64,000 bases of DNA from a virus (IMGVR_UViG_3300032236_001631:1-64000); one strand, 5' to 3'; counted from the stretch's first letter, positions 1-26,152 are shown. Notes: a model not told the origin generated them from the letters alone. A program made the numbers and translations.

Positions 1-21
1 ACATTCTTTGGTATTTCCATA

Positions 22-252
22 TTAATTTTCTTCCATAGCACTGTACATATCTCCATACAGTTCTTCATCTTCTTCTCTTACATCCCTTTCGCAAGCTTCT
101 GCAAACCATTTAGGAACCTTTACTGACTTTACATTCTCATGTAACCAACAGACATAGCTTGGATCAATATCAGAGACTTCCTCTAAAGTCTTTCCTTTAT
201 ACTTTCCAAAGTCTAAAACTGTATCAAGTACATTCATTGAGAGATTTTTCAT
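22..252 (-). CDS. DUF3820/exonuclease X C-terminal-like small protein
   Basis: LDFGKYKGKTLEEV...PSYVCWL motif; start moved to ATG 252, 7 nt after the repeat -10 box. Confidence 0.7.
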   Translation of the reverse strand: MKNLSMNVLDTVLDFGKYKGKTLEEVSDIDPSYVCWLHENVKSVKVPKWFAEACERDVREEDEELYGDMYSAMEEN

Positions 253-259
253 GATTCTT

Positions 260-288
260 ATTCTATATATTTTAGGAGGAAGTGTCAA
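260..288 (-). promoter_or_regulatory. Cassette repeat / sigma70-type early promoter
   Basis: TTGACA-17-TAGAAT. Confidence 0.85.
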
Positions 289-502
289 TAAGATTCTTCA
301 CCACAGCATCAAATCCACCTTGATTCTGGACAAACTCCCAAGCTTCCTTCCAAATCCAAATAGAAGTCTTATGGGGATTAGTGTTCCATTGAGGATGAAA
401 AATTAGACATCCATCATCATGATGAACTGCCCATTCATTGTTTTCACCAAAAGTCAAAACAGTTGGCAATTCTTTTGCTGCATTTGTATTTTCTGTGTTC
501 AT
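272..502 (-). CDS. Hypothetical protein, near-identical to 2887..3117
   Basis: 76 aa, ends IDTSS inside the repeat. Confidence 0.8.
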   Translation of the reverse strand: MNTENTNAAKELPTVLTFGENNEWAVHHDDGCLIFHPQWNTNPHKTSIWIWKEAWEFVQNQGGFDAVVKNLIDTSS

Positions 503-514
503 AATTGTTTATGT

Positions 515-542
515 ATTCTATATTATTTGAGTTAGATGTCAA
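515..542 (-). promoter_or_regulatory. Divergent early promoter
   Basis: TTGACA-16-TAGAAT with a non-repeat spacer. Confidence 0.6.
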
Positions 543-543
543 G

Positions 544-580
544 AAAAAAAAGACTCTTCCAATTAAGAAAGATTCTTTTA
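544..580 (-). terminator. Probable intrinsic terminator
   Basis: Imperfect hairpin aagaatctttct-taatt-ggaagagtctt followed by a T-run on the minus strand, downstream of 607..900. Confidence 0.55.
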
Positions 581-606
581 AATGTTTGAATTATTAATAG
601 AGATAT

Positions 607-900
607 TTATATGCCATATGGATTTTTTGGATCAGGATTAAGACCTTTAGGCTTTGTATCTGTTAACCCATGCAATTCACCAAGATCATCTGGCCAATCA
701 TCTCTTTCAAAATAATTTATATAAATTGAACCATCTTTATTCTTTTTTAACTCTCCAATAGGTCCTTCATCCTTACAATAACCTGTACAGTAGACTTTAC
801 CATCTTTTAATATAAGATCAGATCCACATTTTGAACATTCCTCATCTTTTATATTAAATGGTTTGTTCAAAATACTCTCAACTAGCTTATCAAACTTCAT
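607..900 (-). CDS. Hypothetical Zn-ribbon protein
   Basis: CSKC...CTGYC; start MKFDKLVESIL lies after TAAATA (906-911) and a degenerate repeat (917-944). Confidence 0.65.
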   Translation of the reverse strand: MKFDKLVESILNKPFNIKDEECSKCGSDLILKDGKVYCTGYCKDEGPIGELKKNKDGSIYINYFERDDWPDDLGELHGLTDTKPKGLNPDPKNPYGI

Positions 901-1020
901 ATTATTATTTATCCTTATTATAAATATTTTAGAAGAGGTATCAAGAAAATAATTAAAAGGTATATTCAAATTGCCTTAAACTACTCATAATGGTTATTTT
1001 CTTTGCTCTCAATATACCTT

Positions 1021-1218
1021 TTAAAGTTTTTCATTAGGTAAAATCTGTGCTATTTCAAATAATGCCTCTCTAAGTTTGTTATTGACTCTATTCAGAGACC
1101 ATGCAAATTCTTCTGAAATATTTTCATTAAGAGCATGTCTTCTTATGTGTAAATCTAAATCCTTTTTAAGGTCTTCGATAAGTGTTTTACATTTTGTTGT
1201 TTCTACTTCGTATTTCAT
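1021..1218 (-). CDS. Hypothetical protein, internally deleted paralogue of 4861..5211
   Basis: Shares the N-terminal ~60 aa and the downstream DNA with 4861..5211. Confidence 0.7.
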   Translation of the reverse strand: MKYEVETTKCKTLIEDLKKDLDLHIRRHALNENISEEFAWSLNRVNNKLREALFEIAQILPNEKL

Positions 1219-1227
1219 GATTTTTAT

Positions 1228-1256
1228 TTTCTATATGCTTTAGGGGGACTTGTCAA
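1228..1256 (-). promoter_or_regulatory. Cassette repeat / promoter (variant)
   Basis: TTGACA-17-TAGAAA. Confidence 0.7.
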
Positions 1257-1490
1257 TTAAAATCCTATAGTTTTAATTTCCGAAACAGTACCACCCTTAG
1301 TATATTTCTGAACCACTATAAAGGTGTGTGTTGATTCTTTTATAATTCTAAAATTAGTTTCTGGAAAAAGATATGTATATTTAGCATAAGCATCTATAGC
1401 TTTTTGCAAATCATCATGTGAATGTTCTACAACCATCCAACCACTTTCAGTATATTTTTCGAGGTTATAATATTCTGTGTATTCTTTCAT
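1257..1490 (-). CDS. Hypothetical protein
   Basis: 77-aa ORF filling the space between two repeats. Confidence 0.75.
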   Translation of the reverse strand: MKEYTEYYNLEKYTESGWMVVEHSHDDLQKAIDAYAKYTYLFPETNFRIIKESTHTFIVVQKYTKGGTVSEIKTIGF

Positions 1491-1499
1491 GATTCTTAT

Positions 1500-1528
1500 A
1501 TTCTATATGCTTTAGGAGGAGGTGTCAA
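1500..1528 (-). promoter_or_regulatory. Cassette repeat / promoter
   Basis: Perfect consensus copy. Confidence 0.9.
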
Positions 1529-1721
1529 GTTTGTTTTTAATATGCTCCCAAATTCTTTCATGAACATAGAAGAGAACGATCTTAGCAAAGAAGTCAAAGA
1601 TTGATACACTTAATGAGACAAAAGGTTTTCCTGTAAAGAAATAACAGGCTAGAAAAGTAACCAAAGAGCCAAAGATCCTATAAGAGATAGCTTTGAGTAA
1701 TGATACAGTTCTAGTTTCCAT
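1512..1721 (-). CDS. DUF2061-family small membrane protein
   Basis: SLLKAISYRIFGSLVT...KIVLFYVHERIW; ends LDTSS. Confidence 0.8.
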   Translation of the reverse strand: METRTVSLLKAISYRIFGSLVTFLACYFFTGKPFVSLSVSIFDFFAKIVLFYVHERIWEHIKNKLDTSS

Positions 1722-1743
1722 ATACTTTAGGAGGAGGTGTCAA
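1715..1743 (-). repeat. Cassette repeat with the -10 box replaced by the start of the next gene
   Basis: TTGACAcctcctcctaaagtatATGGAA. Confidence 0.8.
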
Positions 1744-2032
1744 GCTTCTTCTTCATCTCATCCCTCTCCTTAAGATACTTCAAACAGATTTGAGGAACAA
1801 ACCTACCAAGATCCTCTACTTCAGCATTCAAGTTAATATAATCAGAGACTTCATTCCACTGATTCATAACCTTTAGAGCTTCTTCTTTCCATTTCTTTAA
1901 TTCATTTAACTCAATCTCTAAATCTTGAGCAAATGATGCATAAACCCATTCTGTTGCATAAGCCTTACCATCAAGTTTATTTGAATAGGTTACAAACTTA
2001 TCAGCTGCATCTGTTCTTGGTGTCTTATACAT
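1727..2032 (-). CDS. Hypothetical protein (KTPRTDA motif)
   Basis: Shares KTPRTDA...FAQDLEIELNE with 3151..3588; ends LDTSS. Confidence 0.75.
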   Translation of the reverse strand: MYKTPRTDAADKFVTYSNKLDGKAYATEWVYASFAQDLEIELNELKKWKEEALKVMNQWNEVSDYINLNAEVEDLGRFVPQICLKYLKERDEMKKKLDTSS

Positions 2033-2038
2033 GTAATT

Positions 2039-2374
2039 TTATGCACAATAATTCCTCTTAAATGGTTCTTTAATTCCCCACCTAATACAGAAATCATCTA
2101 ACTTATCAATTGGTATAGCATCCTTTACTGATGCTCCATTACTAATAATAACATCAGCTAACTCTTCAGCAATCTCTATTAACTGTGTCCTTTGAATAAG
2201 TCTTTCTTTATTAGAGTCCATTAACTGATTAATCTCCCTCTCATCCTCTTGAGTTTTGACCCACAGAGCATCTCTTTCCAGCTTTACCTCTTCTAGCTCT
2301 TCAGCAGCATCCCTTAATTGACTGATCTCCCTAAATATATCAAACTCGAATTCATTCTCTTCAATATTATTCAT
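2039..2374 (-). CDS. Hypothetical coiled-coil protein
   Basis: ATG 6 nt after the repeat -10 box. Confidence 0.75.
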   Translation of the reverse strand: MNNIEENEFEFDIFREISQLRDAAEELEEVKLERDALWVKTQEDEREINQLMDSNKERLIQRTQLIEIAEELADVIISNGASVKDAIPIDKLDDFCIRWGIKEPFKRNYCA

Positions 2375-2380
2375 AATCTT

Positions 2381-2409
2381 ATTCTATATGCTTTAGGAGG
2401 AGGTGTCAA
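2381..2409 (-). promoter_or_regulatory. Cassette repeat / promoter
   Basis: Perfect consensus copy. Confidence 0.9.
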
Positions 2410-2678
2410 TCTATTTTACAAGAATCACAAGTACAATCAGTCCAAACAACATTTAGAATTTCATCTCCACCGTCTTTAAGATTTATAATGAAATCCATAG
2501 CTTCTTTTTCAGTCTTAAATTTTATAACTGGTAATACATTATCACCACTAGGCAAATAAAATTCTGGTATGCTTCTAAACATACATTCCCATTTATTAAA
2601 TAATCCTTGGTTAAGTTTTTGTTGTGGGTAATAATAACCACCAAGTTCTGCAATTCTATATACTATTTTTCTTTTCAT
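2406..2678 (-). CDS. Hypothetical protein
   Basis: 90 aa; stop is the TGA of TTGACA. Confidence 0.7.
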   Translation of the reverse strand: MKRKIVYRIAELGGYYYPQQKLNQGLFNKWECMFRSIPEFYLPSGDNVLPVIKFKTEKEAMDFIINLKDGGDEILNVVWTDCTCDSCKID

Positions 2679-2868
2679 TTTTCTTTTTAGTTTTAAGTTC
2701 TTTAAAGGAAGTTACACCATTCTGTTCGTATAATTCTTCAAGTCCTTCTTTAGCACCATCTACCATAGCTTTGAAAACTTCAAAGATAAATTGTGCTATC
2801 TTGAATAAAATTACAATGGCTATTGAACCAAAGACTATAATTTCGGATATATGTAGAAATGTATTCAT
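2656..2868 (-). CDS. Hypothetical membrane protein
   Basis: N-terminal hydrophobic segment; ATG 6 nt after -10. Confidence 0.7.
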   Translation of the reverse strand: MNTFLHISEIIVFGSIAIVILFKIAQFIFEVFKAMVDGAKEGLEELYEQNGVTSFKELKTKKKNEKKNSI

Positions 2869-2874
2869 TTTCTT

Positions 2875-2903
2875 ATTCTATATGCTTTAGGAGGAGGTGT
2901 CAA
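2875..2903 (-). promoter_or_regulatory. Cassette repeat / promoter
   Basis: Perfect consensus copy. Confidence 0.9.
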
Positions 2904-3117
2904 TAAGATTCTTCACCACAGCATCAAACCCACCTTGATTCTGGACAAATTCCCAAGCTTCCTTCCAAATCCAAATAGAAGTCTTATGGGGATTGGTGTT
3001 CCATTGAGGATGAAAAATTAGACATCCATCATCATGATGAACTGCCCATTCATTGTTTTCACCAAAAGTCAAAACCTTTGGTAATTCTTTTGCTGCATTT
3101 ATGTTTTCTGTATTCAT
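2887..3117 (-). CDS. Hypothetical protein, duplicate of 272..502
   Basis: Differs from 272..502 at 2 of 76 aa; ends IDTSS. Confidence 0.8.
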   Translation of the reverse strand: MNTENINAAKELPKVLTFGENNEWAVHHDDGCLIFHPQWNTNPHKTSIWIWKEAWEFVQNQGGFDAVVKNLIDTSS

Positions 3118-3125
3118 ATTTTTAT

Positions 3126-3154
3126 ATTCTATATGCTTTAGGAGGAGGTGTCAA
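3126..3154 (-). promoter_or_regulatory. Cassette repeat / promoter
   Basis: Perfect consensus copy. Confidence 0.9.
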
Positions 3155-3588
3155 GCTCTTTTATAACCAGTTTTTTTTATAATTAAATTTAACTTTGCAA
3201 GAGCTAGTTTTGATTCTTTACACCAATTCTGACTGATTTCATCACTCATAATATCAGCCAAAGTAATAGCTTCATTTAAAAGATTTCTTGTTTCATTCAA
3301 TTCAATCTCTAAATCTTGAGCAAATACAACTTCATCATCCCATGTAATATTTGTTCTATTAAAAAAAGCATCTGTTCTAGGAGTTTTGTTATGAATCATA
3401 TCCATAGCAACCTTATTATAATGCTCCTTCTCTTCTTCTGTTAAATTAGGTCTATTGGTCATATTCTTTTGTTCAAGCATAGTGTTTGTTTCATCTTTAT
3501 TGACTAATCCATATTTTACCAAATCATCAACCCATTCGTTAGCCAATGGCTTAATTAGTTTATTAAAATCTTCTGTATTCAGAAACAT
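3151..3588 (-). CDS. Hypothetical protein (KTPRTDA motif)
   Basis: 145 aa; stop within TTGACA. Confidence 0.75.
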   Translation of the reverse strand: MFLNTEDFNKLIKPLANEWVDDLVKYGLVNKDETNTMLEQKNMTNRPNLTEEEKEHYNKVAMDMIHNKTPRTDAFFNRTNITWDDEVVFAQDLEIELNETRNLLNEAITLADIMSDEISQNWCKESKLALAKLNLIIKKTGYKRA

Positions 3589-3596
3589 ATATTGTT

Positions 3597-3869
3597 TTAG
3601 TGAGAGGTGATATTTGTATCATAACTAGAGGATACAGAATCCGAACCAACAGCAAATAAAGTCTGTTGTTTAAACCAATGACTAGGTGAGTCAATGTTAC
3701 CTGTATTATGGAAATCTCTCGGATATTCAACAGGAAGATTATCAGAAGGAGTAACAGAATTAGGATGTACAAATCTTCTAGACATATTTTGCTCAATAAG
3801 TTGCTGATTCTGTTCTATAATCTTTTCTAAAAGTTTAATAATTTTGTTATTTTGTAATTTTGTATTCAT
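3597..3869 (-). CDS. Hypothetical protein
   Basis: N-terminus KIIKLLEKIIEQN resembles that of 5252..5470. Confidence 0.7.
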   Translation of the reverse strand: MNTKLQNNKIIKLLEKIIEQNQQLIEQNMSRRFVHPNSVTPSDNLPVEYPRDFHNTGNIDSPSHWFKQQTLFAVGSDSVSSSYDTNITSH

Positions 3870-3877
3870 AATCTTAC

Positions 3878-3906
3878 AGTCTATATGCTTTAGGAGGAGG
3901 TGTCAA
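3878..3906 (-). promoter_or_regulatory. Cassette repeat / promoter
   Basis: TTGACA-17-TAGACT. Confidence 0.85.
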
Positions 3907-4568
3907 GCATCATTATGATGATCTGGAGAACTTTGTGCTCTCTTTCTCATCTCTGCTCTTAGTTCTCCAAAGGTAATAGGACTTGGACAATTTTCAACAG
4001 AAACTTCATAATTGAGTCCTGTCTTTAGATATAGTCTCCCAAGTTCTGATCTATTAAGATTACCATGTACATGAGAAAAGATATGATATGCTCCCTTTCC
4101 ACTTCCATTCCAAGATAGAATAGGATAGTGGCTCATTACAATAGATTGTCCATTGATTGAAGTTTCCAAATAATTTGGAACAAAATGAACCTGCTTGTAT
4201 TCTGATGCAGAAGGTAGAAGAATATTATCCTGCACCTTTTCAATGAGTTGTTTGTATCCTGCTTGGTGATTACCAGACATGATATAAAGTTGATTGAAGT
4301 CTAGTCTACGAAAAAGGCTAATAAGTCTTTCATCAGCATTGTGACCGAAAATTGTATCACCAAGAAGAAACCCAATAGTACTAGCACCAGCTTTCTTATT
4401 CCAATTCATGATCAATCCTTCATCATGTTCAAAGGAACTATTATATCCTCTGGTCTTCCAGATAGGAACATCCCATTTTGGATCATGTCCATAGTGCATA
4501 CAGCCCCAAAACAGAACATCGTGATCGGTGCTTGTAATTTTTACAGATTTGTAAAAAAGATCCTTCAT
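3903..4568 (-). CDS. Calcineurin-like metallophosphoesterase
   Basis: Motifs CMHYGH, LLGD, GNH, SHYP, HVH. Confidence 0.8.
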   Translation of the reverse strand: MKDLFYKSVKITSTDHDVLFWGCMHYGHDPKWDVPIWKTRGYNSSFEHDEGLIMNWNKKAGASTIGFLLGDTIFGHNADERLISLFRRLDFNQLYIMSGNHQAGYKQLIEKVQDNILLPSASEYKQVHFVPNYLETSINGQSIVMSHYPILSWNGSGKGAYHIFSHVHGNLNRSELGRLYLKTGLNYEVSVENCPSPITFGELRAEMRKRAQSSPDHHNDA

Positions 4569-4574
4569 CACACT

Positions 4575-4603
4575 ATTCTATATGCTTTAGGAGGAGGTGT
4601 CAA
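4575..4603 (-). promoter_or_regulatory. Cassette repeat / promoter
   Basis: Perfect consensus copy. Confidence 0.9.
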
Positions 4604-4761
4604 TTAAATTCTCTTTCAAATTTTTTAATTTTATCTTCAAGGTCTTTAATTCTTTTTTCTAATTTATATTCTGCTCTAGAATCTATAAGAGCACTACCAA
4701 TACTCACAACAATATAGATACCAATAAACCAATAAATATATGGGATAAGTTGTTCATTCAT
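4600..4761 (-). CDS. 53-aa membrane/coiled-coil protein (not in ORF track)
   Basis: MNEQLIPYIYWFIGIYIVVSIGSAL...EREFN; exactly fills one repeat-bounded cassette. Confidence 0.7.
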   Translation of the reverse strand: MNEQLIPYIYWFIGIYIVVSIGSALIDSRAEYKLEKRIKDLEDKIKKFEREFN

Positions 4762-4767
4762 AATCTT

Positions 4768-4796
4768 ATTCTATATGCTTTAGGAGGAGGTGTCAA
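4768..4796 (-). promoter_or_regulatory. Cassette repeat / promoter
   Basis: Perfect consensus copy. Confidence 0.9.
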
Positions 4797-4860
4797 GAAA
4801 ATAATTAAAAGGTATATTCAAAATGCATTAAACTACTCATAATGGTTGTTTTCTTTGCTC

Positions 4861-5211
4861 TCAATATACCTTTTTCCAAGTTGTTTTTGTTTCTGTAATC
4901 TTCTTATATCTGATTCCCTTTATGACAAGCTCTTCAATATCTCCAGAAAGATTATCTAGGTTATCGAAAATGTCTGACTCTGTTTCTTTTTGTTTCCCAA
5001 GAAATCTTCCATATATATCTGGCTCACTGGGTAGAATTTGTGCTATTTCAAATAAAGCACCTCTAAGCTTATCATTAACTCTATTGAGAGACCATGCAAA
5101 TTCTTCTGAAATGTTTTTATTAAAAGAATGTCTTATTATATGCCAATCTAAATCCTTTTTAAGACTCTCAATAAGGGTTGTGCATTTTGTTGTTTCTACT
5201 TCGTATTTCAT
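4861..5211 (-). CDS. Hypothetical protein, full-length paralogue of 1021..1218
   Basis: 116 aa; ATG 6 nt after -10. Confidence 0.75.
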   Translation of the reverse strand: MKYEVETTKCTTLIESLKKDLDWHIIRHSFNKNISEEFAWSLNRVNDKLRGALFEIAQILPSEPDIYGRFLGKQKETESDIFDNLDNLSGDIEELVIKGIRYKKITETKTTWKKVY

Positions 5212-5217
5212 AATCTT

Positions 5218-5246
5218 ATTCTATATGCTTTAGGAGGAGATGTCAA
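5218..5246 (-). promoter_or_regulatory. Cassette repeat / promoter
   Basis: One mismatch to consensus. Confidence 0.9.
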
Positions 5247-5251
5247 GAGAA

Positions 5252-5470
5252 TTAACCATACCATTCTCTATCTGGTAAAGATTCTGAACTTACTTTACAA
5301 TCTGGTCCTTTATATGGAACATAAGGAATGTCTTTTCCAAAATGAGGGTCAATGTTTGGAGGTACTGGAACAGTTGGAAGAGTTCTCCAAATGTTTTGAT
5401 TCTTTATAATCTCTTCATTCTGCTTTACAATCATTTCAAGCAATTGAATAATCTTTTCTTTTTTCTTCAT
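5252..5470 (-). CDS. Hypothetical protein
   Basis: 72 aa, tightly packed operon. Confidence 0.7.
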   Translation of the reverse strand: MKKKEKIIQLLEMIVKQNEEIIKNQNIWRTLPTVPVPPNIDPHFGKDIPYVPYKGPDCKVSSESLPDREWYG

Positions 5471-5471
5471 A

Positions 5472-5735
5472 TTAATTTCTAGGATCAGTCCAACTTTGAA
5501 TAGGATAAGGTGTATTGAGAATCATTTCAACAAAAGCTTTTCCTTTTTCAGTGAGTGTAAGTTGATCAGCATCAGAATCATGTTCAGCAAATCTTACTAG
5601 GATATGATCTTTTAGTAATTGACTAGCAGCATCATATTCTGCACTATTCCATCTGTTGATCATATACCTTGGATGGTAATGTGCTTTGAGAACAATCTCA
5701 ATCTTTAATGGGCTGTGTAGGTTTCTTTTAATCAT
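5472..5735 (-). CDS. Hypothetical protein
   Basis: Start reassigned to MIKRNL next to the upstream stop. Confidence 0.65.
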   Translation of the reverse strand: MIKRNLHSPLKIEIVLKAHYHPRYMINRWNSAEYDAASQLLKDHILVRFAEHDSDADQLTLTEKGKAFVEMILNTPYPIQSWTDPRN

Positions 5736-5736
5736 A

Positions 5737-6042
5737 TTAGTCTTTGTTAAAGTCATTAAAGATAGCTTTCCATTCATTTAGGATATACTCTCTAATTGGA
5801 TTGTCTTGGTACATTACATCTATATCTTTTACAATTCTATCAAAGCTTTTTACTAATTGCTCTCCTCTTTTCTTATAAAGATTTGCTACATCCTCCCAAT
5901 CAATATGTTCATTTGGTACTGGAATTACCATATCTTTATTGCAATGAACACAAGTACAATGAACTCTCTGTCCTATAACAGGTGCAAACTCTAAAGTATC
6001 TTCATTGAGGAATGGATTAGCAAAAATTGTTTTGTGTTTCAT
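5737..6042 (-). CDS. Hypothetical protein
   Basis: 101 aa with CVHC; ATGA overlap with the upstream gene. Confidence 0.7.
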   Translation of the reverse strand: MKHKTIFANPFLNEDTLEFAPVIGQRVHCTCVHCNKDMVIPVPNEHIDWEDVANLYKKRGEQLVKSFDRIVKDIDVMYQDNPIREYILNEWKAIFNDFNKD

Positions 6043-6356
6043 GCTATTTGTCCTTTCTCTTTGTAATAGTCATAAGCATCATTATAGCCATTCTCGTAAG
6101 CTTTAAGAGCAGCTTTATCCTTAATTTGTTCAATCTTCTGATTAAAGATTCTCAAAAGAAAATCAACAAAGACCTGTGCAGACTCATATGTATCTCCTTC
6201 AAACTTTAATTTGTCTTCATTAAAGTCTAACTTACCAAGTTCTTTATGTTCTTTGTTAAAGAATTGAATAGTATGATTAGGTTCAAAAAGAGATAGAGAA
6301 TTATCAGTACAGATAACTTTATCCCAATTAGATTTATCTATTTTTAGATATTCCAT
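6039..6356 (-). CDS. Hypothetical protein
   Basis: 105 aa, packed operon. Confidence 0.7.
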   Translation of the reverse strand: MEYLKIDKSNWDKVICTDNSLSLFEPNHTIQFFNKEHKELGKLDFNEDKLKFEGDTYESAQVFVDFLLRIFNQKIEQIKDKAALKAYENGYNDAYDYYKEKGQIA

Positions 6357-6357
6357 A

Positions 6358-6636
6358 TTAATTTACAGCCTTCTCTGTTGTCTCATTATAAGCAAATTTT
6401 TCCATCTGCTTAATATATCTCAAAGCTGTCTGATGTCTAGTCTCATTTTCAAAACAACTAGAAACATTTAGAATTAGCTCATAGTAAAGCTCAGAAAGTT
6501 TTTCATACTTCTTTCTATTAACAACACTATCAAATGCTTCTACATTATGCATCTCCATCCAATTGTATAGCATTTTAGCAGCAGCAATGATCTCTGGTGG
6601 TACATCATTTACAGGTAGATAAATATCTTTGCTCAT
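6358..6636 (-). CDS. Hypothetical protein
   Basis: 92 aa; contains the HQTALRYIK motif seen in small phage proteins. Confidence 0.7.
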   Translation of the reverse strand: MSKDIYLPVNDVPPEIIAAAKMLYNWMEMHNVEAFDSVVNRKKYEKLSELYYELILNVSSCFENETRHQTALRYIKQMEKFAYNETTEKAVN

Positions 6637-6854
6637 AAATTGAATGCCTCATTAACCCTCTCTTCAAACTTCTTAACAGCTGGAAGGATAATTTGATTTG
6701 TTGTGAAGTCATTTGTCTTAAGCTCTCTTGCTATAACACTTCCAAACTCTAATGCTGCTAGGTTAACTTTATTTCTAATAACAGAAAGCTCATCATGTTC
6801 TTCTAGTCCAGTTAGAACTTCTTTTAGGAAATTTTTAATCTCTTCTCTTTTCAT
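6633..6854 (-). CDS. Hypothetical protein
   Basis: Start MKREEIK directly after the YopX stop. Confidence 0.65.
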   Translation of the reverse strand: MKREEIKNFLKEVLTGLEEHDELSVIRNKVNLAALEFGSVIARELKTNDFTTNQIILPAVKKFEERVNEAFNL

Positions 6855-6855
6855 A

Positions 6856-7257
6856 TTAAATCTTCTCCTTTTCGAATACATTACCAATTACTTCACAGTC
6901 ATCAACAACTGTTCTCCAAATATCTGGAATGAAGCAACCAGTAACAAACTTCACCTCATCAACTCTATAATTCTCCCTATGAAGACTATTTGTTGTCCAT
7001 CCTACTGGAATTGGATATTTGATAATGTCTCCTTCATAAATTTCTGTTCCTCCTTTATCTTTCATTCCAGTATATTGCTGAATAAAAGGCTGTTCATAAG
7101 CATCAAATACAGGTTCCCATGTTGGATCTTCTTTAGTACCATAGTTCTCATAAACAGTACCATTCAAACTAAGCATAAGATCCTCATCCTTATAGATCAT
7201 TTGCTTTGTCCCTTGTTGATCTGTATAACAAACTCTAAATTTGAATTCTCTTTTCAT
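6856..7257 (-). CDS. YopX-family protein
   Basis: MKREFKFRV...QYTGMKDKGGTEIYEGDII...EVIGNVFE. Confidence 0.9.
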   Translation of the reverse strand: MKREFKFRVCYTDQQGTKQMIYKDEDLMLSLNGTVYENYGTKEDPTWEPVFDAYEQPFIQQYTGMKDKGGTEIYEGDIIKYPIPVGWTTNSLHRENYRVDEVKFVTGCFIPDIWRTVVDDCEVIGNVFEKEKI

Positions 7258-7258
7258 A

Positions 7259-7909
7259 TTACCAACCCTCCTCTTTCTTTCTTGGTGCTGTTACCCATAC
7301 ACCAATGTTTCCTACCCACTGTAAAGCACCATCTACAAAACCAAGTTCATACTTCTCGCCTTTAGGTAATTGTGACCATTTTTTATCAATAAGATCAAAT
7401 GCTTCTTGATATTTCTTTTCACAAAAAAACGAATATAATTTCTTTTTAATTCTAGCTGGAGCAACAAAGAATTTCCTAGTACTAAAACCTTGGACAACTG
7501 GATTAGGAACATCTGAATAACTTCCCCAACAAGTATCAAAGTCACGACCAGAACCAGAGTATCCTCCATTTCTTTCGTATGCCATATATTGTCTAAGAGT
7601 CTTCCAAATCATATAGGCTTCCTCTCCCCCAAAACCATACTGACCAACTCCCCATGCGGCATTAGGAGAACCAAGATCTTTGAAATATACTTTTCTAATG
7701 AGAGCTTCAATGTCTTTATTGTCATTGAAGTGATCATAGTTCTCATGCTTGAGCATCTCAGTCTGCTTATCAGCATAGCATTCGTCCAGTGCCATAGTGA
7801 TTTGACCACTACGCATACGCATGAATACTTCCAATGCTCTTTCGATTACAGGAAGATGTCTCTCGTCAAATGTAACAGTGACTTTCTTATGTTCTTTTTT
7901 CTTAGGCAT
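7259..7909 (-). CDS. Hypothetical protein
   Basis: 216-aa ORF immediately downstream of the structured RNA. Confidence 0.75.
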   Translation of the reverse strand: MPKKKEHKKVTVTFDERHLPVIERALEVFMRMRSGQITMALDECYADKQTEMLKHENYDHFNDNKDIEALIRKVYFKDLGSPNAAWGVGQYGFGGEEAYMIWKTLRQYMAYERNGGYSGSGRDFDTCWGSYSDVPNPVVQGFSTRKFFVAPARIKKKLYSFFCEKKYQEAFDLIDKKWSQLPKGEKYELGFVDGALQWVGNIGVWVTAPRKKEEGW

Positions 7910-7924
7910 GTTTTTAAAAGTTGA

Positions 7925-8039
7925 TGACTAGGAAATACTTTGGTGGTACTTCGGACAGGCTACACGTTCATCGTATACTATGCTTCGCTATCACCTGTTG
8001 CGGAAGTTCTTTAGCTTATAAGAACTCGCACCCTAGTCA
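7925..8039 (-). ncRNA. Candidate multi-branch structured RNA of unknown family
   Basis: Closing stem TGACTAGG/CCTAGTCA enclosing three hairpins; G-U wobbles favour the minus strand. Confidence 0.55.
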
Positions 8040-8045
8040 AATTGT

Positions 8046-8282
8046 TTATCCTAGCATATTAACAGTATCTCTATATGCTGTCAAGGCATTAATGATATCA
8101 TCTAATTCACTATTCTCAAAAGACATAAAACTTCTTGGTCTACGATCTGCGTCGAAATGACTAGGACAAATATCTGTAGTTAGCATTTCAGTATATTCAT
8201 AATTGTCTGGTGATTGTCTGAATGTCAAAAAGAAATCATCTAATTTTACGTTTACTTGTACACTTGTATTTTTATTTTTCAT
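8046..8282 (-). CDS. Hypothetical protein
   Basis: 78 aa, TAATG-coupled to the upstream gene. Confidence 0.7.
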   Translation of the reverse strand: MKNKNTSVQVNVKLDDFFLTFRQSPDNYEYTEMLTTDICPSHFDADRRPRSFMSFENSELDDIINALTAYRDTVNMLG

Positions 8283-8677
8283 TACTTCTTATTACGAGTT
8301 GCTTCAAGGATAGGAAGATTAGCCTCTGTAGGAATATAGATTACCTGATTCTTGGTATTCTCAAGGTTATTCACAAAGAGATATCTAAGATATTCCTCAT
8401 TATTCTTCAGGGACTCACCAATGATTTTATTGGCTTCTGCAACTCCCTTTGCTCTTTCCACCTCTGCTTTAGCTAGAAGTGTAGCACTTTCCATCTTTGC
8501 CCTTGCTTCTGCTACTGCAACCTCACGAGAAGATTGAGCATGAGCAAGGATAGCTTCACCAGCCATTCTCTGTTGATAGACATCATACTTTGGACAACCT
8601 ACCATACCACCAGCAATAATACCAATGATAAGGATTGTGATTAATGTTACGATTGATATTACTTCTGTTGTTTTCAT
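8282..8677 (-). CDS. Membrane-anchored SPFH/band-7-like coiled-coil protein
   Basis: TM helix followed by AEVERAKGVAEANKIIGESL...YIPTEANLPILEA. Confidence 0.7.
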   Translation of the reverse strand: MKTTEVISIVTLITILIIGIIAGGMVGCPKYDVYQQRMAGEAILAHAQSSREVAVAEARAKMESATLLAKAEVERAKGVAEANKIIGESLKNNEEYLRYLFVNNLENTKNQVIYIPTEANLPILEATRNKK

Positions 8678-8685
8678 ATTTTTAT

Positions 8686-8714
8686 ATACTATATCATTTA
8701 AAAGTTTCTGTCAA
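8686..8714 (-). promoter_or_regulatory. Sigma70-type promoter (non-repeat spacer)
   Basis: TTGACA-17-TAGTAT. Confidence 0.65.
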
Positions 8715-9135
8715 CAAAAATTCTATCGAATTTTTCGGCGGTAGTATTATTTTTATGCCTTCCATCATCTACGAGAAGAACATTATCAAAACCGCTCATC
8801 ATACATTCGACAGCAACCATAATAGAATCATCAATATGAAGTACAGAACCAATCTCTTTTAGAACTGGTGATTTAGGTTTACATGCAACAGAATGAATAT
8901 CTCTAATAGGAAGTTTATACTCTTCTACATATGCTTTAACTTCTGGTATGTCCCAAGTCTCTCTGGCAGTTACAATGTCAATGATGTAACCTTCATTATG
9001 CTTCTCAAAAAGAAGATCATGAACCTTTTGAATTGGGACAAGAACTTCAGAAGAAGTCCACAGCATTCCTACTTTCTCTTCGCTTAAAGAGAACAAAGTA
9101 TCATCAAAATCCGTTGAAATAACTAAACCTTTCAT
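8698..9135 (-). CDS. HAD-superfamily hydrolase
   Basis: DFDDTL, VTAR, K, HIDD motifs. Confidence 0.8.
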   Translation of the reverse strand: MKGLVISTDFDDTLFSLSEEKVGMLWTSSEVLVPIQKVHDLLFEKHNEGYIIDIVTARETWDIPEVKAYVEEYKLPIRDIHSVACKPKSPVLKEIGSVLHIDDSIMVAVECMMSGFDNVLLVDDGRHKNNTTAEKFDRIFVDRNF

Positions 9136-9141
9136 AAAATA

Positions 9142-9170
9142 AACTTATATGAAATTCTATTCATTGTCAA
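9142..9170 (-). promoter_or_regulatory. Sigma70-type promoter, leaderless spacing
   Basis: TTGACA-17-TAAGTT-6-ATG. Confidence 0.6.
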
Positions 9171-9233
9171 TTTTATATTTCAAAAAAAACCTCCAGAACT
9201 TTTACTTCTTTTCTTTAAACATGCTGTGATACT

Positions 9234-9269
9234 TTATTCATCAAAGTCAAAAGTGATTAGTTGTTTCAC
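9234..9269 (-). pseudogene. Possible remnant of a HAD hydrolase 5' end
   Basis: GTG start overlapping the upstream stop, MKQLITFDFDE then stop. Confidence 0.35.
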
Positions 9270-9484
9270 CTTGGAATGATAACAGCCATAGCATTAGGTT
9301 CGTATTGATCAGTTACATGATGAACCTCATGCTTACCATAATACCACTCTTCATGGACATTCAGTCTAATAGGAGTCTGATAAGGCTTACTAGGAGAAGC
9401 AATTCCTCCCTCATATCCTTCTACCATGACAAGCATTTCTGGATCAAACTGCTGTAGCTGTTCTATAAGTTCTTTTATTTTCAT
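9266..9484 (-). CDS. Hypothetical phage protein
   Basis: MKIKELIEQLQQFDPEMLVMVEGYEGG. Confidence 0.75.
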   Translation of the reverse strand: MKIKELIEQLQQFDPEMLVMVEGYEGGIASPSKPYQTPIRLNVHEEWYYGKHEVHHVTDQYEPNAMAVIIPR

Positions 9485-9606
9485 TTTATAACAAACATAA
9501 GCCACAATGCAAAAATGCACGATATAGTTGAGAATGCGATGAATGCACTTATACCTAAAAAGATATAGAACGCAATTGTTAATTTATTCGGATATTTATT
9601 TTTCAT
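9481..9606 (-). CDS. 41-aa membrane peptide (not in ORF track)
   Basis: MKNKYPNKLTIAFYIFLGISAFIAF...; ATG 6 nt after -10, ATGA-coupled to the next gene. Confidence 0.65.
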   Translation of the reverse strand: MKNKYPNKLTIAFYIFLGISAFIAFSTISCIFALWLMFVIK

Positions 9607-9612
9607 AATCCT

Positions 9613-9641
9613 ATTCTATATGCTTTAGGAGGTGGTGTCAA
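9613..9641 (-). promoter_or_regulatory. Cassette repeat / promoter
   Basis: One mismatch to consensus. Confidence 0.9.
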
Positions 9642-9795
9642 GAGGTTCATACAAATCTGGACAAAATTCTCTATTATATGTTTCTCTAACTCTGATATAC
9701 TCTTCAAAAGTTAAACCAGAGATTGTTACAGTTATAAGAGCATTAGGACTATCAAAAAACTCTTTATCAGATTTTGAATCAAATATTCTAGGCAT
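9625..9795 (-). CDS. Hypothetical protein
   Basis: Start MPRIFD preceded by AATAAGATT (repeat tail); ends LDTTS. Confidence 0.65.
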   Translation of the reverse strand: MPRIFDSKSDKEFFDSPNALITVTISGLTFEEYIRVRETYNREFCPDLYEPLDTTS

Positions 9796-9799
9796 AATC

Positions 9800-10033
9800 T
9801 TATTTGTTTTGGTTCCAAAGAGGAAAGTCATCCCATTGTTTGATAATCCAACCACCAGTATGATAAGACTCAAAATGTGTACCATTTTTAAAACCATCAG
9901 AAACAAATTTAGCTTCTACATTTGGAACACTAAAGGTTGCTATTCCATCTGGTGTATTCTTTGTAATGATAATATGAGTATCATTACAGCTAATCTCTGA
10001 GGTATCTACCATCACTTCTAATTTATATTTCAT
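9800..10033 (-). CDS. Hypothetical protein
   Basis: ATG 6 nt after -10. Confidence 0.75.
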   Translation of the reverse strand: MKYKLEVMVDTSEISCNDTHIIITKNTPDGIATFSVPNVEAKFVSDGFKNGTHFESYHTGGWIIKQWDDFPLWNQNK

Positions 10034-10039
10034 AATCTT

Positions 10040-10068
10040 ATTCTATATGCTTTAGGATGACTTGTCAA
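10040..10068 (-). promoter_or_regulatory. Cassette repeat / promoter (variant)
   Basis: TTGACAagtcatcctaaagcataTAGAAT. Confidence 0.85.
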
Positions 10069-10237
10069 GATTTTTGCATTGATCAATAATATAATCAACA
10101 GGAATCATATTAGTTAATGTTCTATTACTTTCTCTTAATTGCTTAACAGTCCAAATAAGCTCTTCTACTGTCATTTTTTCTGGTTCAACACAATATTCTA
10201 AATCATCTCCGAATTTATTAGTTCTGTATTCATTCAT
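10052..10237 (-). CDS. Hypothetical protein
   Basis: Fills one cassette; ends LDKSS. Confidence 0.75.
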   Translation of the reverse strand: MNEYRTNKFGDDLEYCVEPEKMTVEELIWTVKQLRESNRTLTNMIPVDYIIDQCKNLDKSS

Positions 10238-10243
10238 AATCTT

Positions 10244-10272
10244 ATTCTATATGCTTTAGGAGGATGTGTCAA
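10244..10272 (-). promoter_or_regulatory. Cassette repeat / promoter
   Basis: One mismatch to consensus. Confidence 0.9.
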
Positions 10273-10441
10273 GCTTTTCTTTCAATTTAGCAATTTCCAC
10301 ACATTGCTTACTGATTATATCCTTTAGATATTTGATTCTATGTTCATGTGAATCACCACAATTATAACCTCCAAGAGATCTATAATAATCGAATGCCTTT
10401 TTTTGATAAGGGTCTGTTAGATTATATGAATTGAATTTCAT
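10256..10441 (-). CDS. Hypothetical protein
   Basis: Fills one cassette; ends LDTSS. Confidence 0.75.
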   Translation of the reverse strand: MKFNSYNLTDPYQKKAFDYYRSLGGYNCGDSHEHRIKYLKDIISKQCVEIAKLKEKLDTSS

Positions 10442-10447
10442 AATCTT

Positions 10448-10475
10448 ATTATATAGTATTAAGAGGAGGTGTCAA
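10448..10475 (-). promoter_or_regulatory. Cassette repeat / promoter (divergent)
   Basis: TTGACAcctcctc...-16-TATAAT. Confidence 0.75.
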
Positions 10476-10630
10476 TGAAAAAGATTAAGTGTTGCAGCTA
10501 TAAAATAAAATGCCAATGCTATAAAGAAAGTTTTCTCCATAAGACTAACCTTACACATTAGCCCTAATCCAAGAGTTATAAAGGTTGCTACTACAGCAAT
10601 GGTTGTAAAAATAGGTAATACTATATTCAT
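10472..10630 (-). CDS. 52-aa two-TM membrane protein (not in ORF track)
   Basis: MNIVLPIFTTIAVVATFITLGLGLM...; fills one cassette. Confidence 0.7.
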   Translation of the reverse strand: MNIVLPIFTTIAVVATFITLGLGLMCKVSLMEKTFFIALAFYFIAATLNLFH

Positions 10631-10636
10631 TATTAC

Positions 10637-10665
10637 AGTCTATATGCTTTAGGAGGAGGTGTCAA
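10637..10665 (-). promoter_or_regulatory. Cassette repeat / promoter
   Basis: TTGACA-17-TAGACT. Confidence 0.85.
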
Positions 10666-10868
10666 GGCTCTTCTCTCTCAGCACTCAGCTTTAGAATCCC
10701 ATTACTAATGTATAGGTTAGCTGTAATTCTTGAGCCATCCTGAAGAGTAATTCCAAGCCAGAACCTATCCTGATCCATTCTTTCTAGATGGACAAATTGA
10801 GCATCTTCGGCAATAACTTCATCAAAGTTACCTTCTCTATCAGATCTGATTTCCCATTCTGGTTTCAT
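10662..10868 (-). CDS. Hypothetical protein
   Basis: VHLERMDQDRFWLGI motif; stop within TTGACA. Confidence 0.75.
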   Translation of the reverse strand: MKPEWEIRSDREGNFDEVIAEDAQFVHLERMDQDRFWLGITLQDGSRITANLYISNGILKLSAEREEP

Positions 10869-10965
10869 TGATTAAAATCTCATTTATTTTCTTTTTCTTT
10901 TCTATCTCTTATCCATTTTATAATCATTGGCATACCTAGTAAGCCATATTTTGGAATTCTTTTTT

Positions 10966-11202
10966 TCATGAATTTAAATCCAAGTTATGCTCATTCAAGA
11001 GCCTCCAAAGCTCATCTCTTACCTTAGCCATAGTATCAGTGAGAATAGGATCCTCTTTATCAGATGGATACTTGACAAAGTTTCTAAGGTACTGGTCTAG
11101 CTCCCAAAGCACTAAAGAATACTTTCTAGCATTATTAGCTAGTTCAAATTCTTCAAGATCTTCAGGTTCGTTTAAGTTATATTCTAAAGTGGCTTTTGGC
11201 AT
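10966..11202 (-). CDS. Hypothetical phage protein
   Basis: KATLEYNL...LWELDQYLR pattern common in small phage proteins. Confidence 0.75.
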   Translation of the reverse strand: MPKATLEYNLNEPEDLEEFELANNARKYSLVLWELDQYLRNFVKYPSDKEDPILTDTMAKVRDELWRLLNEHNLDLNS

Positions 11203-11203
11203 A

Positions 11204-11530
11204 TTAAGATTTTATATTATTTTTATAAAGGTCATAGCTCAGAATCAGACTAATAGTATAACCAAAAGCTGTCCATATCCATCCATAATAGAGTAATATT
11301 ATAATAAAAACAATTGTAATAGGAGTACTAATCCATACAGGAACAGGTCTTCCTTCTTTAATGATTCTATCATGAATCTCTTTATTATTCATAGCTAGAA
11401 TACAACATGATACTCCAAACCAAGTAAGAAAATAAATCATGTATTGTGCTGCTTTCATTCCTTTGATACCATACCAGAGAACAATCAAAGAAAAACACAG
11501 AGAAATAAAATATTTTGATTTTCTGTTCAT
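11204..11530 (-). CDS. Hypothetical multi-TM membrane protein
   Basis: Several hydrophobic segments; start MNRKSK. Confidence 0.7.
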   Translation of the reverse strand: MNRKSKYFISLCFSLIVLWYGIKGMKAAQYMIYFLTWFGVSCCILAMNNKEIHDRIIKEGRPVPVWISTPITIVFIIILLYYGWIWTAFGYTISLILSYDLYKNNIKS

Positions 11531-11531
11531 A

Positions 11532-11969
11532 TTATTCTTTATTGTCAATTTGACTTCTTAGCATTTGATTTTCAGATTCGAGTATATCAATACGCTCTCT
11601 CATTCCTTGAATAAGTGCTTTTGTTTCTTTTAAAATTCTAGCATCTTTTCCTGCTACATCATAAATTCTAAAAATATCTTCTTCGTTATGAGTTTTATCG
11701 TTATACGTCATGATTATTTTTTCCAATTCTACCAATATTTTTTTGTAATTGCAATCATTATTTTTATATTCTGAAATCAATTTTAAGCAAATATCTTTAA
11801 TCTTAAAGAATTTTATGGCATTCTTATCCATACTATCTGCCATTTCCTTTACCAGATCTCTCCAATAATTTAAAGATTTTTGAAATTCTTTATTTTGTAT
11901 TTCTAGATTGATATTCTTGATTCTCAAATTAGCAATATCATCTATCATATTTGGTTTATAATCATCCAT
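11532..11969 (-). CDS. Hypothetical coiled-coil protein
   Basis: 145-aa ORF in packed operon. Confidence 0.7.
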   Translation of the reverse strand: MDDYKPNMIDDIANLRIKNINLEIQNKEFQKSLNYWRDLVKEMADSMDKNAIKFFKIKDICLKLISEYKNNDCNYKKILVELEKIIMTYNDKTHNEEDIFRIYDVAGKDARILKETKALIQGMRERIDILESENQMLRSQIDNKE

Positions 11970-11970
11970 A

Positions 11971-12654
11971 TTATTTTGTTAATTCGTATTCAAGAAGAAT
12001 AGAAGAAAGTTCTTTTTGAACTTCATTAAGGAGATTTTTTTCCTTTTTATTTGGTTTCAGACTTTCCCATATACTAGAATCATCTGTAGAAAAATAAGCA
12101 TTAATCTCATCGACTATGACCTTTTTAGTATATCCAATATGAAGCAGATATTCTTCAATATTTTTGTAAAGGTTTGGAGTGATACGTTTAATTATCTTAT
12201 CAACTTTATTCTTATAATCTTTATTGAGATGATAAAGTGCATGAGCAACTTCATGTCTCTTGGTAATCTTATTATTACCTTCACTACCAATAAGATAATA
12301 CTTTGGATCTTTTTCATCCAATTCATCCATGATAGTATCATGAATGTCCATGATGACATCATCATAATAATTCATATCTATAGTATTTTTCTCATAATAA
12401 CATTTTTGAATCATAGAACCCGGAATATTAAATCCTGACCAATCAGCAGGATAACCAAAATAAACTTCTTTATTTTTCTTAGCATACAAGCGCATGAAAT
12501 CCAAAAGCTCAAAGTTTTTTCCACGAATCTCTTTGAAGGGAGATTCGTAAAACTCTTGCACACGGCAAAAAGTCATTGCAAGATCATAACGATTATTGAT
12601 TATGCAATGATAAATTCTATTAGAAATTTTTTCTAGTTTGTATTTAATTTTCAT
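11971..12654 (-). CDS. Hypothetical protein with HExxH zinc-peptidase motif
   Basis: RHEVAH ... DEINAY. Confidence 0.65.
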   Translation of the reverse strand: MKIKYKLEKISNRIYHCIINNRYDLAMTFCRVQEFYESPFKEIRGKNFELLDFMRLYAKKNKEVYFGYPADWSGFNIPGSMIQKCYYEKNTIDMNYYDDVIMDIHDTIMDELDEKDPKYYLIGSEGNNKITKRHEVAHALYHLNKDYKNKVDKIIKRITPNLYKNIEEYLLHIGYTKKVIVDEINAYFSTDDSSIWESLKPNKKEKNLLNEVQKELSSILLEYELTK

Positions 12655-15497: not shown

Positions 15498-15552
15498 ATT
15501 TTTAGGATTATAGGTTATAGGATATAGATAGTCAAGAGTTTATTTTTAAACA

Positions 15553-26110: not shown

Positions 26111-26152
26111 GATATTACTTTTTTAGGCTCTTTTACTAAATATTAGAGTAAC

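Follow-up and report, generated by a model that had tools for sequence, protein, structure and literature searches.

Why should the 17 nucleotides (nt) between the -35 and -10 hexamers of a promoter be the same in front of one small viral gene after another? The question is raised by positions 260–10665 of a 64,000-nt stretch of viral DNA (positions 1–64,000 of contig IMGVR_UViG_3300032236_001631; hereafter the window). An original prediction, made from this DNA alone, described here an array of small gene cassettes separated by a 29-bp direct repeat that contains a promoter, and proposed an integron-like platform for gene acquisition and shuffling. Comparison with related genomes and metagenomes points instead to a promoter-repeat module that probably serves both recombination and expression. 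It would act in the manner of the promoter/stem-loop cassettes (PeSLs) of RB49/phi1-type T4-like phages, in a leaderless form that has no stem-loop.

A repeated module of about 40 nt

The 29-mer TTGACACCTCCTCCTAAAGCATATAGAAT occurs 14 times in the window at up to 3 mismatches, against 0 occurrences in 100 shuffled sequences. A looser scan (4 mismatches) adds a fifteenth copy at 1228–1256, and alignment of paralogous cassettes together with a promoter scan adds two decayed copies with 16-nt spacers (515–542 and 917–944), for a total of 17 (Table 1). All lie on the minus strand in two clusters (260–5246 and 9613–10665), within which neighbouring copies are 193–752 nt apart. No further copy was found in the rest of the 74,799-base contig (the other 64 kb). 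The contig starts at window position 1, and the array may therefore be cut, as it adjoins the contig end.

The repeated unit heads each small early gene or pair of genes, extends to about 40 nt and consists of TTGACA, the 17-nt spacer CCTCCTCCTAAAGCATA, TAGAAT, AAGATT and ATG-AA. Across 101 distinct copies from 36 sources, conservation begins abruptly at the first T of TTGACA and continues through TAGAAT-AAGATT-ATG-AA. The count of 16 copies first claimed was thus about right, as were the single orientation, the two clusters, the units of about 190–750 bp and the existence of the repeat itself; its position on the minus strand, its extension through the start codon and its leaderless geometry had been overlooked.

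Stop, promoter and start in one sequence

TTGACA-17-TAGAAT matches the sigma-70 consensus at 11/12 positions, and there is little doubt, on this match, that the element is a near-consensus sigma-70 early promoter. An ATG follows the -10 after exactly 6 nt in 69/101 distinct copies (36 sources) and after 6–9 nt in 84/101; in the window, 14/15 copies have an ATG 6–9 nt downstream, opening an open reading frame (ORF) of 41–221 aa. Transcription from sigma-70 promoters usually starts at the 7th nt past the -10. With 6 nt between -10 and ATG this 7th base is the A of the start codon, so the cassette messenger RNAs (mRNAs) are quite likely to be leaderless. No Shine-Dalgarno (SD) sequence is present at the 3′ end of the element, because just 6–9 nt separate the -10 from the ATG. 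Nor was any terminator-like site found on the minus strand of 1–11000, and in a test of 6 copies the predicted folds were in no case significantly more stable than those of the shuffles (z -0.34 to +1.52, 4/6 above +1).

The module also closes the gene that precedes it. The stop codon of the upstream ORF falls within the element in 12/15 window copies (the TAA of the spacer in 7, the TGA of TTGACA in 5) and in 38/57 copies across 7 genomes; the third reading frame would run on to an ATGA overlap and is used in 0/57 copies from the same 7 genomes. As the -35 contains a TGA and the spacer a TAA, genes abut with neither intergenic DNA nor a terminator between them. The original prediction had the element lacking a stem-loop, lacking a ribosome-binding site and overlapping gene ends, and in each respect the scans bear it out.

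It had also contrasted the repeat with other promoters of the window, said to have unrelated spacers. Such promoters do exist (8686–8714, 9154–9183 and 15507–15535), but the first agrees with the element at 9/17 spacer positions, as read by eye from the alignment row, and is therefore not fully unrelated to it. A consensus promoter at 10448–10475, with a 16-nt spacer, was not counted among the element copies. The promoters at 8686 and 10448 likewise stand 6–8 nt before an ATG, as do the TTGACA promoters of a related phage, G001, whose spacers are unrelated. SD-poor, leaderless early expression would therefore be a trait of the clade, which the identical spacer is not.

In the contig as a whole, the majority of ORFs 150 aa or longer lack an SD sequence and are AT-rich upstream (for example 20535, 26153, 37738 and 43584), the capsid gene at 44545 being one of the few with AAGGAG upstream. 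This scarcity suggests a host that makes little use of SD sequences.

Homology breaks at the element

Genomes compared are numbered G000 (the window's own record, estimated to be only 35% complete) to G010; only parts of G003, G008 and G010 entered the comparisons. Cassettes common to G000 and G010 are 88–96% identical at the nt level, and their order differs. At 8/8 junctions between these two genomes, identity is 88–100% on one side of the 29-mer and 26–42% on the other, and one G010 copy fuses the upstream flank of 9613–9641 with the downstream flank of 4575–4603. Among 58 copies from 7 genomes, one flank is at least 80% identical in 21 between-genome pairs and in 8 within-genome pairs, of which 0 keep both. 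Within the window, two pairs of cassettes are paralogous (Table 1), and in both the homology spans promoter to promoter and ends there.

The same one-sidedness was found on a larger scale. Copies were left out if they had over 4 mismatches, lacked 60-nt flanks or duplicated another window exactly; the 268 distinct ones that remained, from 127 sources, gave 9 pairs that keep both flanks and 415 that keep one (415/424, 98%). More than one partner was seen for 56/58 recurrent upstream contexts (up to 10 partners) and 52/54 recurrent downstream contexts (up to 14). As a control, the same flank test was applied at points shifted inside the same loci. There the one-sided share was 41% at -170 nt (61 pairs with both flanks, 43 with one), 57% at -230 nt (38 and 51), 33% at +100 nt (123 and 60) and 39% at +160 nt (71 and 45).

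Variation within the copies indicates where the exchange would take place. The exact motif was recovered in 35 stretches on 25 viral contigs and in 114 metagenome stretches, of which the 80 listed were used for the analysis of linkage to flanks. Pairs with only the downstream flank in common have a mismatch rate of 0.08 in the leader, against 0.37 for pairs with only the upstream flank in common and 0.38 for unrelated pairs. Variants of the -10 and leader thus go with the downstream gene, and positions 1–20 are linked to neither flank, which points to -10, leader and gene as the moving unit and to the invariant -35/spacer as the crossover zone.

A near-identical pair of arrays gives a view of a single event. 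Metagenome locus L188 is 96.6–98.5% identical to G007 over aligned array blocks and lacks 672 nt (two cassettes) that G007 carries between copies 1791–1819 and 1119–1147, the copy at 1541–1569 included. The single copy left in L188 is chimeric, being 100% identical to the first G007 copy and its upstream flank through ATGAATGAAGAA, past which it follows the downstream flank of the second G007 copy with 96% identity. This crossover is at the extreme 3′ end of 47 nt of homology, outside the 29-mer, and the break point is therefore not fixed. ORFan192 of RB49 and phi1 presents the same pattern, as described in the available part of PMC2839356.

From these comparisons the element is very probably the preferred crossover site. 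Gain, loss and reordering of cassettes with breakpoints in the repeat, the behaviour to be looked for in relatives under the original prediction, are what the junctions, the flank pairs and the 672-nt indel display, and its idea that the recombination site doubles as an expression signal is supported.

The phage, its relatives and the distribution of the motif

The window encodes a gp23-type capsid protein (phrog_138), a portal protein and a baseplate wedge protein. Among cultured phages the closest capsids, 35% identical, are cyanophage gp23 proteins, and window positions 1–12000 have no near match in a cultured-phage collection. By its gene content the phage is a distant T4-like freshwater myovirus, and the array its hyperplastic early region; IMG/VR contains relatives of 210–230 kb.

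None of 185,579 prokaryote genomes contains a matching stretch, and this search yielded neither a hint of the host nor a host promoter that could serve as a model. Copies at up to 3 mismatches number 5 in G003, 4 in G006, 9 in G007, 10 in G008, 5 in G009 and 6 in G010, mostly clustered and often at contig ends, and scans of G001, G002, G004 and G005 at the same threshold found none. The motif is not distributed according to the capsid tree: in genomes that have it, the capsid protein is 85% (G003), 81% (G007), 80% (G010) and 69% (G006) identical to that of the window, and in genomes that lack it 81% (G001) and 82% (G002).

G009 is a separate lineage. This 154-kb record with matching ends (36% GC) has the exact 29-mer. 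A search of it for a gp23-type capsid gave no match, its terminase resembles the generic large-terminase family phrog_2 only weakly, and those of its structural-region ORFs that were scanned have no PHROG match. Among its ORFs of at least 100 aa, 28/177 have a match in G000 or G001. Early genes common to G009 and the window are 74–88% identical in amino acids, and the shared DNA is limited to the 4–32 kb region of G009.

Sharing of closely similar early DNA does accompany the motif. Of the early 16 kb of the window's contig, 855 nt in G006, 1271 nt in G007 and 499 nt in the non-T4-like G009 are present at 85% nt identity or more, against 0 nt in motif-free G001, with which only 431 nt align, at 68%. 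For the other 58.8 kb, 19.6 kb aligns with G001 (at most 74.8%) and 19.2 kb with G007 (at most 78.6%), and no block of at least 85% was found with G001, G006, G007 or G009; nt identity of the capsid gene ranges from 72.5% (G010) to 78.6% (G007). With cassettes at 85% or more and the core at 79% or less, the early cassettes would be much younger than the core genomes and would move among motif-bearing phages. The two ribonucleotide reductase subunits (G009 61,702–64,361) are 78–85% identical in amino acids between G009 and G006/G007 and have no match in G001, a likeness that may be read as another sign of gene flow in the motif-bearing set.

Other repeats were seen in these genomes. A replacement repeated promoter in G001 was considered and rejected: its repeated 16-mers come from tandem repeats of about 42–84 nt within the coding sequence of a large gene, probably for a fibre-like protein, at 177,993–181,010 (locus L143). 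G009 has a second promoter family (CTTGACACTATAACCAAAAAATA...), with 3 copies a few nt before ATG at about 127,300–127,900 (locus L156), where a single cassette with the main element at its head has been inserted between two family members; the third member, with the AAGATTATGAA leader of the main element, may be a hybrid. In G007, a 20-mer (CGATTTGTAAAACAAAGTTT) occurs 15 times within 190,973–210,306 (loci L166 and L167), often in inverted pairs; judged by eye from the printed flanks, the G+C content of this region appears higher than elsewhere in the genome. The 20-mer is absent from G000.

Recombination enzymes and a proposed mechanism

A RecA-family match, as expected for UvsX, was found in G006, G007 and G001; the search of the incomplete G000 gave none. 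Neither Phage_integrase (PF00589) nor Resolvase has a match in G000, G006, G007, G009 or G001, four of which are complete and three of these both complete and motif-bearing. The original prediction saw no recombinase in the window, an observation that, for tyrosine and serine recombinases, now extends to the five genomes searched. A RecA/UvsX-like gene in the complete T4-like relatives and 29–47 nt of identity would be enough for general homologous recombination, which we consider likely to be at work here in preference to a site-specific system.

The proposed mechanism starts from a near-consensus promoter read by host sigma-70, at which transcription would begin at the A of the ATG and yield a leaderless cassette mRNA, as the geometry implies. 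Leaderless mRNA would explain both the missing SD and the separate promoter of every cassette. The module closes the preceding gene through the TGA of its -35 or the TAA of its spacer, both visible in the sequence. The identical -35 and spacer would then offer a short homology to general recombination of the UvsX/RecA type, the pattern being shown by genome comparison and the enzyme suggested by the gene content of relatives. Recombination could take place within one genome and between co-infecting phages, with -10, leader and gene moving as a unit, and would result in deletion, duplication, reordering and exchange of cassettes, including exchange with an unrelated phage lineage. This would be the PeSL mechanism of RB49/phi1-type phages cut down to a promoter-only, leaderless form.

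Weighing the alternatives

Several results weigh against this account. In a small control within G000, gene starts with the motif gave 15 one-sided cases, 1 both-sided non-adjacent case and 0 adjacent, and starts without it 25 one-sided, 2 adjacent and 2 non-adjacent; the control does not separate the two classes, and the early region is mosaic throughout. Ends of homology blocks in the array fall within 40 nt of a copy in 19/36 cases against 25% expected (binomial p = 3e-4; high-scoring segment pairs were kept if they had at least 100 nt, at least 80% identity and both ends within the array), a test that is biased because the motif itself is conserved. The remaining 17/36 ends have no copy within 40 nt, and most of them fall inside genes. 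L188 and G007 also differ by a 455-nt for 217-nt replacement away from any copy, and a third difference between them coincides with G007 contig ends. The lack of linkage at positions 1–20 fits conversion or recurrent mutation as well as it fits crossover. The RecA-family search of G009 gave no match, and a common host could account for both motif and gene sharing. No RNA run is listed as containing the locus. All the genomes, moreover, are short-read metagenome assemblies, and in the likely source run the Logan contigs break off at every copy, so that cassette order rests on the original assemblers.

The Logan contigs themselves were of limited use. Most of their joints have sides of only 20–44 nt, which is the repeat itself, and were set aside as evidence; one was retained (run X2, record 10), which runs from 4594 to 4138, through 253 unlike letters, and on from 1743 to 1499. 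Contigs of the likely source sample and of a second sample (run X1, depth 28; run X2, depth 39.5) join a TAGACT-type copy straight to the start of F1, a gene family represented in the window at 7259–7909. These joins map to window 7910 and to 3128 or 10637; F1 in the window has no such promoter, and the contigs probably derive from co-occurring relatives.

Could the repeat be just a very strong early promoter, or an operator, its spacer read by a host or phage factor (for early shut-off, for example), with breaks that simply follow gene boundaries in a mosaic region? Conservation of the exact 29-mer across capsids 69–85% identical and in an unrelated lineage looks like purifying selection, and gene starts without the motif in G000 are also mostly one-sided; PeSL promoters, too, were too strong for cloning, according to the available part of PMC2839356. 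However, G001 uses unrelated spacers at the same 6–8 nt from the ATG, so the spacer is not needed for early expression in the clade, and read by eye it has no obvious dyad symmetry. The excess of breaks is moreover specific to the element (98%, compared with 33–57% at shifted points), and both ends of the 672-nt indel fall within copies. We regard this explanation as unlikely; it is also compatible with recombination as a by-product.

An integron-like, site-specific system, in which a dedicated recombinase or nuclease of an unfamiliar family reads the spacer and moves the cassettes, would fit the strict 29-nt conservation and the mapping of the crossover zone to the -35/spacer, and F1 offered a candidate for it. 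Genes of this family adjoin the arrays of G000, G006, G007 and G009; a homologue also occurs in G008, and motif-free G001 lacks the family. F1 resembles no known fold or family (no Pfam, PHROG or Protein Data Bank sequence match and no informative Atlas match). It was dropped as a motif-linked factor: with no family match, it was left with an AlphaFold model (predicted local distance difference test score, pLDDT, 50) too poor for a fold search. Tyrosine and serine recombinases are missing from the five genomes searched, the element has no inverted repeat or hairpin, and the L188/G007 crossover lies beyond the 29-mer, at a break point that is not fixed; a site-specific system is accordingly very improbable. 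Just as improbable is that the shuffling is an artefact of short-read assemblers switching strains at repeats of 29–47 nt. Logan contigs of the source run do end at copies and several contigs end within arrays, but the one-sided pattern recurs in 127 independent sources, paralogous cassettes within contigs agree with orthologous junctions across assemblies, and repeats of this size are far below read length and can be bridged by reads.

Comparison with known systems

A search of one literature library for the motif, PeSLs and leaderless early genes found no description of this element and nothing on PeSLs later than 2015. PeSLs consist of an AT-rich region, a sigma-70 promoter, a transcription-terminating stem-loop, an SD and a start codon, are conserved more loosely over about 100 bp, sit in hyperplastic regions beside ORFans, and mediate indels and mini-circles (available part of PMC2839356). 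The T4/PST and KVP40/nt-1 pairs, whose promoter consensus sequences are looser, were added later (PMC4122927, same proviso), and no such motif density was found in one cyanophage, as reported in the available part of PMC4503421.

The element resembles PeSLs in being a repeated sigma-70-type early promoter, with -35 and -10 17 nt apart, upstream of ORFans in a hyperplastic region (all copies lie within 260–10665 of the 74.8-kb contig). As with PeSLs, indels, replacements and reordering between related phages end in the motif, every cassette brings its own expression signal, homologous recombination is proposed, and the phage is a T4-like myovirus. It differs in lacking a stem-loop or terminator and an SD, the ATG being placed at the predicted transcription start; the fold and terminator scans and the -10-to-ATG spacing bear out this difference from PeSLs, already noted in the original prediction, so far as PeSLs are described in the available part of PMC2839356. 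The conserved unit is about 40 nt with the whole spacer included, rather than a looser 100 bp; it provides the stop codon of the upstream gene; and it is common to a phage without a gp23-type capsid (G009). The element is therefore a variant of the PeSL kind that lacks two of its defining parts, the stem-loop and the SD. It also brings three features of its own: the spacer is conserved in full, a stop codon is built in, and the element extends to a phage that is not T4-like. On leaderless expression in other phages, the AR9 paper describes phage transcripts as often leaderless (available part of PMC5312081), and in phiKZ no leaderless transcript was found, in the part of PMC8244752 available.

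Arrays of small, unrelated cassettes in a single orientation, with a repeated site at which they are gained, lost and reordered, do recall integrons. The integron-like label does not hold, however, since there is no integrase (0 matches to PF00589 in the five genomes, that of the window being about a third complete, as stated above), no attC-like hairpin, and a promoter on each cassette in place of the one shared Pc of integrons; nor is the crossover point fixed. T4 early promoters are likewise read by host sigma-70, are present in many copies per genome and head small non-essential early genes, but T4 early genes have SD leaders and the spacers of their promoters are not known to be identical. 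In lambdoid phages, boundary or 'linker' sequences have been proposed as crossover points between unrelated modules. The use of a short common sequence at gene boundaries is alike; here the linker is a full promoter, stop and start module with hundreds of copies across metagenomes.

Cassette genes and neighbouring features

Coordinates of the element copies and of the genes around them are collected in Table 1. The cassette genes have few recognisable relatives: a Pfam scan of 8/16 cluster 1 ORFs gave 0 matches, and a comparison of these 8 with PHROGs gave a strong named match for 1 (phosphoesterase), weak matches for 3 (E 2.5e-4 to 3e-3) and none for 4. ORF 2039–2374 has a weak match to a MazG-like pyrophosphatase (phrog_3301). 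Since the G010 homologue of ORF 9625–9906 is 56 aa long, the true start of that ORF is probably internal. Several of the early genes between the clusters are linked by stop/start overlaps (for example 6356/6358 and 6633/6636).

Table 1. Element copies, other promoters, ORFs and cassettes of the early region. Cluster 1 ORFs span 22–5211 and cluster 2 ORFs 9481–10630.
Feature	Position	Strand	Remarks
Element copy	260–288	-	3 mismatches; ATG of ORF 22–252 is 7 nt past -10
Decayed copy	515–542	-	TTGACA-16-TAGAAT; upstream of ORF 272–502
Decayed copy	917–944	-	TTGATA-16-TATAAT; paralogous to copy 4768–4796
Element copy	1228–1256	-	4 mismatches
Element copy	1500–1528	-	exact
Element copy	1715–1743	-	3 mismatches; -10 mutated to TGGAAA
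Element copy	2381–2409	-	exact
Element copy	2875–2903	-	exact
Element copy	3126–3154	-	exact
Element copy	3878–3906	-	TAGACT variant
Element copy	4575–4603	-	exact
Element copy	4768–4796	-	exact
Element copy	5218–5246	-	1 mismatch
Element copy	9613–9641	-	1 mismatch
Element copy	10040–10068	-	3 mismatches
Element copy	10244–10272	-	1 mismatch
Element copy	10637–10665	-	TAGACT variant
Other promoter	8686–8714	-	TTGACA-17-TAGTAT; ATG of ORF 8282–8677 is 8 nt past -10
Other promoter	10448–10475	-	consensus, TTGACA-16-TATAAT; ATG of ORF 10256–10441 is 6 nt past -10
Cassette	255–512	-	paralogous to 2870–3127, 94%
Cassette	927–1224	-	paralogous to 4779–5217, 85–93%, about 140 nt shorter
Cluster 1 ORF	4861–5211	-	
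Cluster 1 ORF	4600–4761	-	
Cluster 1 ORF	3903–4568	-	phosphoesterase-like, phrog_547
Cluster 1 ORF	3597–3869	-	
Cluster 1 ORF	3151–3588	-	
Cluster 1 ORF	2887–3117	-	
Cluster 1 ORF	2656–2868	-	
Cluster 1 ORF	2406–2678	-	
Cluster 1 ORF	2039–2374	-	
Cluster 1 ORF	1727–2032	-	
Cluster 1 ORF	1512–1721	-	
Cluster 1 ORF	1257–1490	-	
Cluster 1 ORF	1021–1218	-	
Cluster 1 ORF	607–900	-	
Cluster 1 ORF	272–502	-	
Cluster 1 ORF	22–252	-	
Early genes without element	5252–9606	-	between clusters; includes family F1 (7259–7909)
Cluster 2 ORF	10472–10630	-	
Cluster 2 ORF	10256–10441	-	
Cluster 2 ORF	10052–10237	-	
Cluster 2 ORF	9800–10033	-	
Cluster 2 ORF	9625–9906	-	
Cluster 2 ORF	9481–9606	-	

One copy, at 1715–1743, is dead: an ATG that arose in its mutated -10 now opens ORF 1512–1721, 5 nt past the stop of ORF 1727–2032, and G010 is in the identical state. 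Directly upstream of this copy, a segment of about 150 nt at the 3′ end of ORF 1727–2032 (1748–1906) is 93–97% identical to the 3′ ends of three genes in G006 and G008. The three G006/G008 genes that share this 3′ end differ in length (130, 164 and 266 aa), and a C-terminal module held in common together with its promoter points to crossovers within genes too.

Beyond the array, the first large ORF downstream of the promoter at 15507–15535, past minor ORFs, encodes an N6/N4 DNA methylase (14323–15234, minus strand, 303 aa). Divergent from it is a glycosyltransferase gene (15553–16773, plus strand), whose product is 80% identical in amino acids to one in the unrelated phage G009. Very large ORFs lie in 20535–36172 and 51629–55219 (1506, 352, 1899, 1417 and 1196 aa); they have VWA, legume-lectin or PKD/Ig domains or belong to no family, and are probably virion surface or adhesin proteins.

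Implications

Shuffling of the PeSL type has so far been described for just a few cultured T4-like phage pairs. In these uncultured freshwater phages it is visible at three scales, between genomes about 98% identical, between genomes at about 75% nt identity and with a different lineage. The mechanism would require neither stem-loop nor SD, and would be tied to predicted leaderless expression in a phage that rarely uses SD sequences. The module packs stop, promoter and start into a compact, portable junction, and the element offers an easily searched marker with which the movement of early genes from phage to phage can be followed in metagenomes.

A broader proposal is offered tentatively, and we hold it to be somewhat less probable than even: that the 40-nt module is a currency of exchange which defines a gene-sharing community of otherwise unrelated phages, the spacer being identical in its capacity as crossover zone. 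If so, early-gene sharing would track possession of the module and not relatedness of core genomes, and the spacer would be under second-order selection for compatibility in recombination, not for transcription. The module would then be a counterpart of the integron that works between viruses, free of a recombinase and expressing itself.

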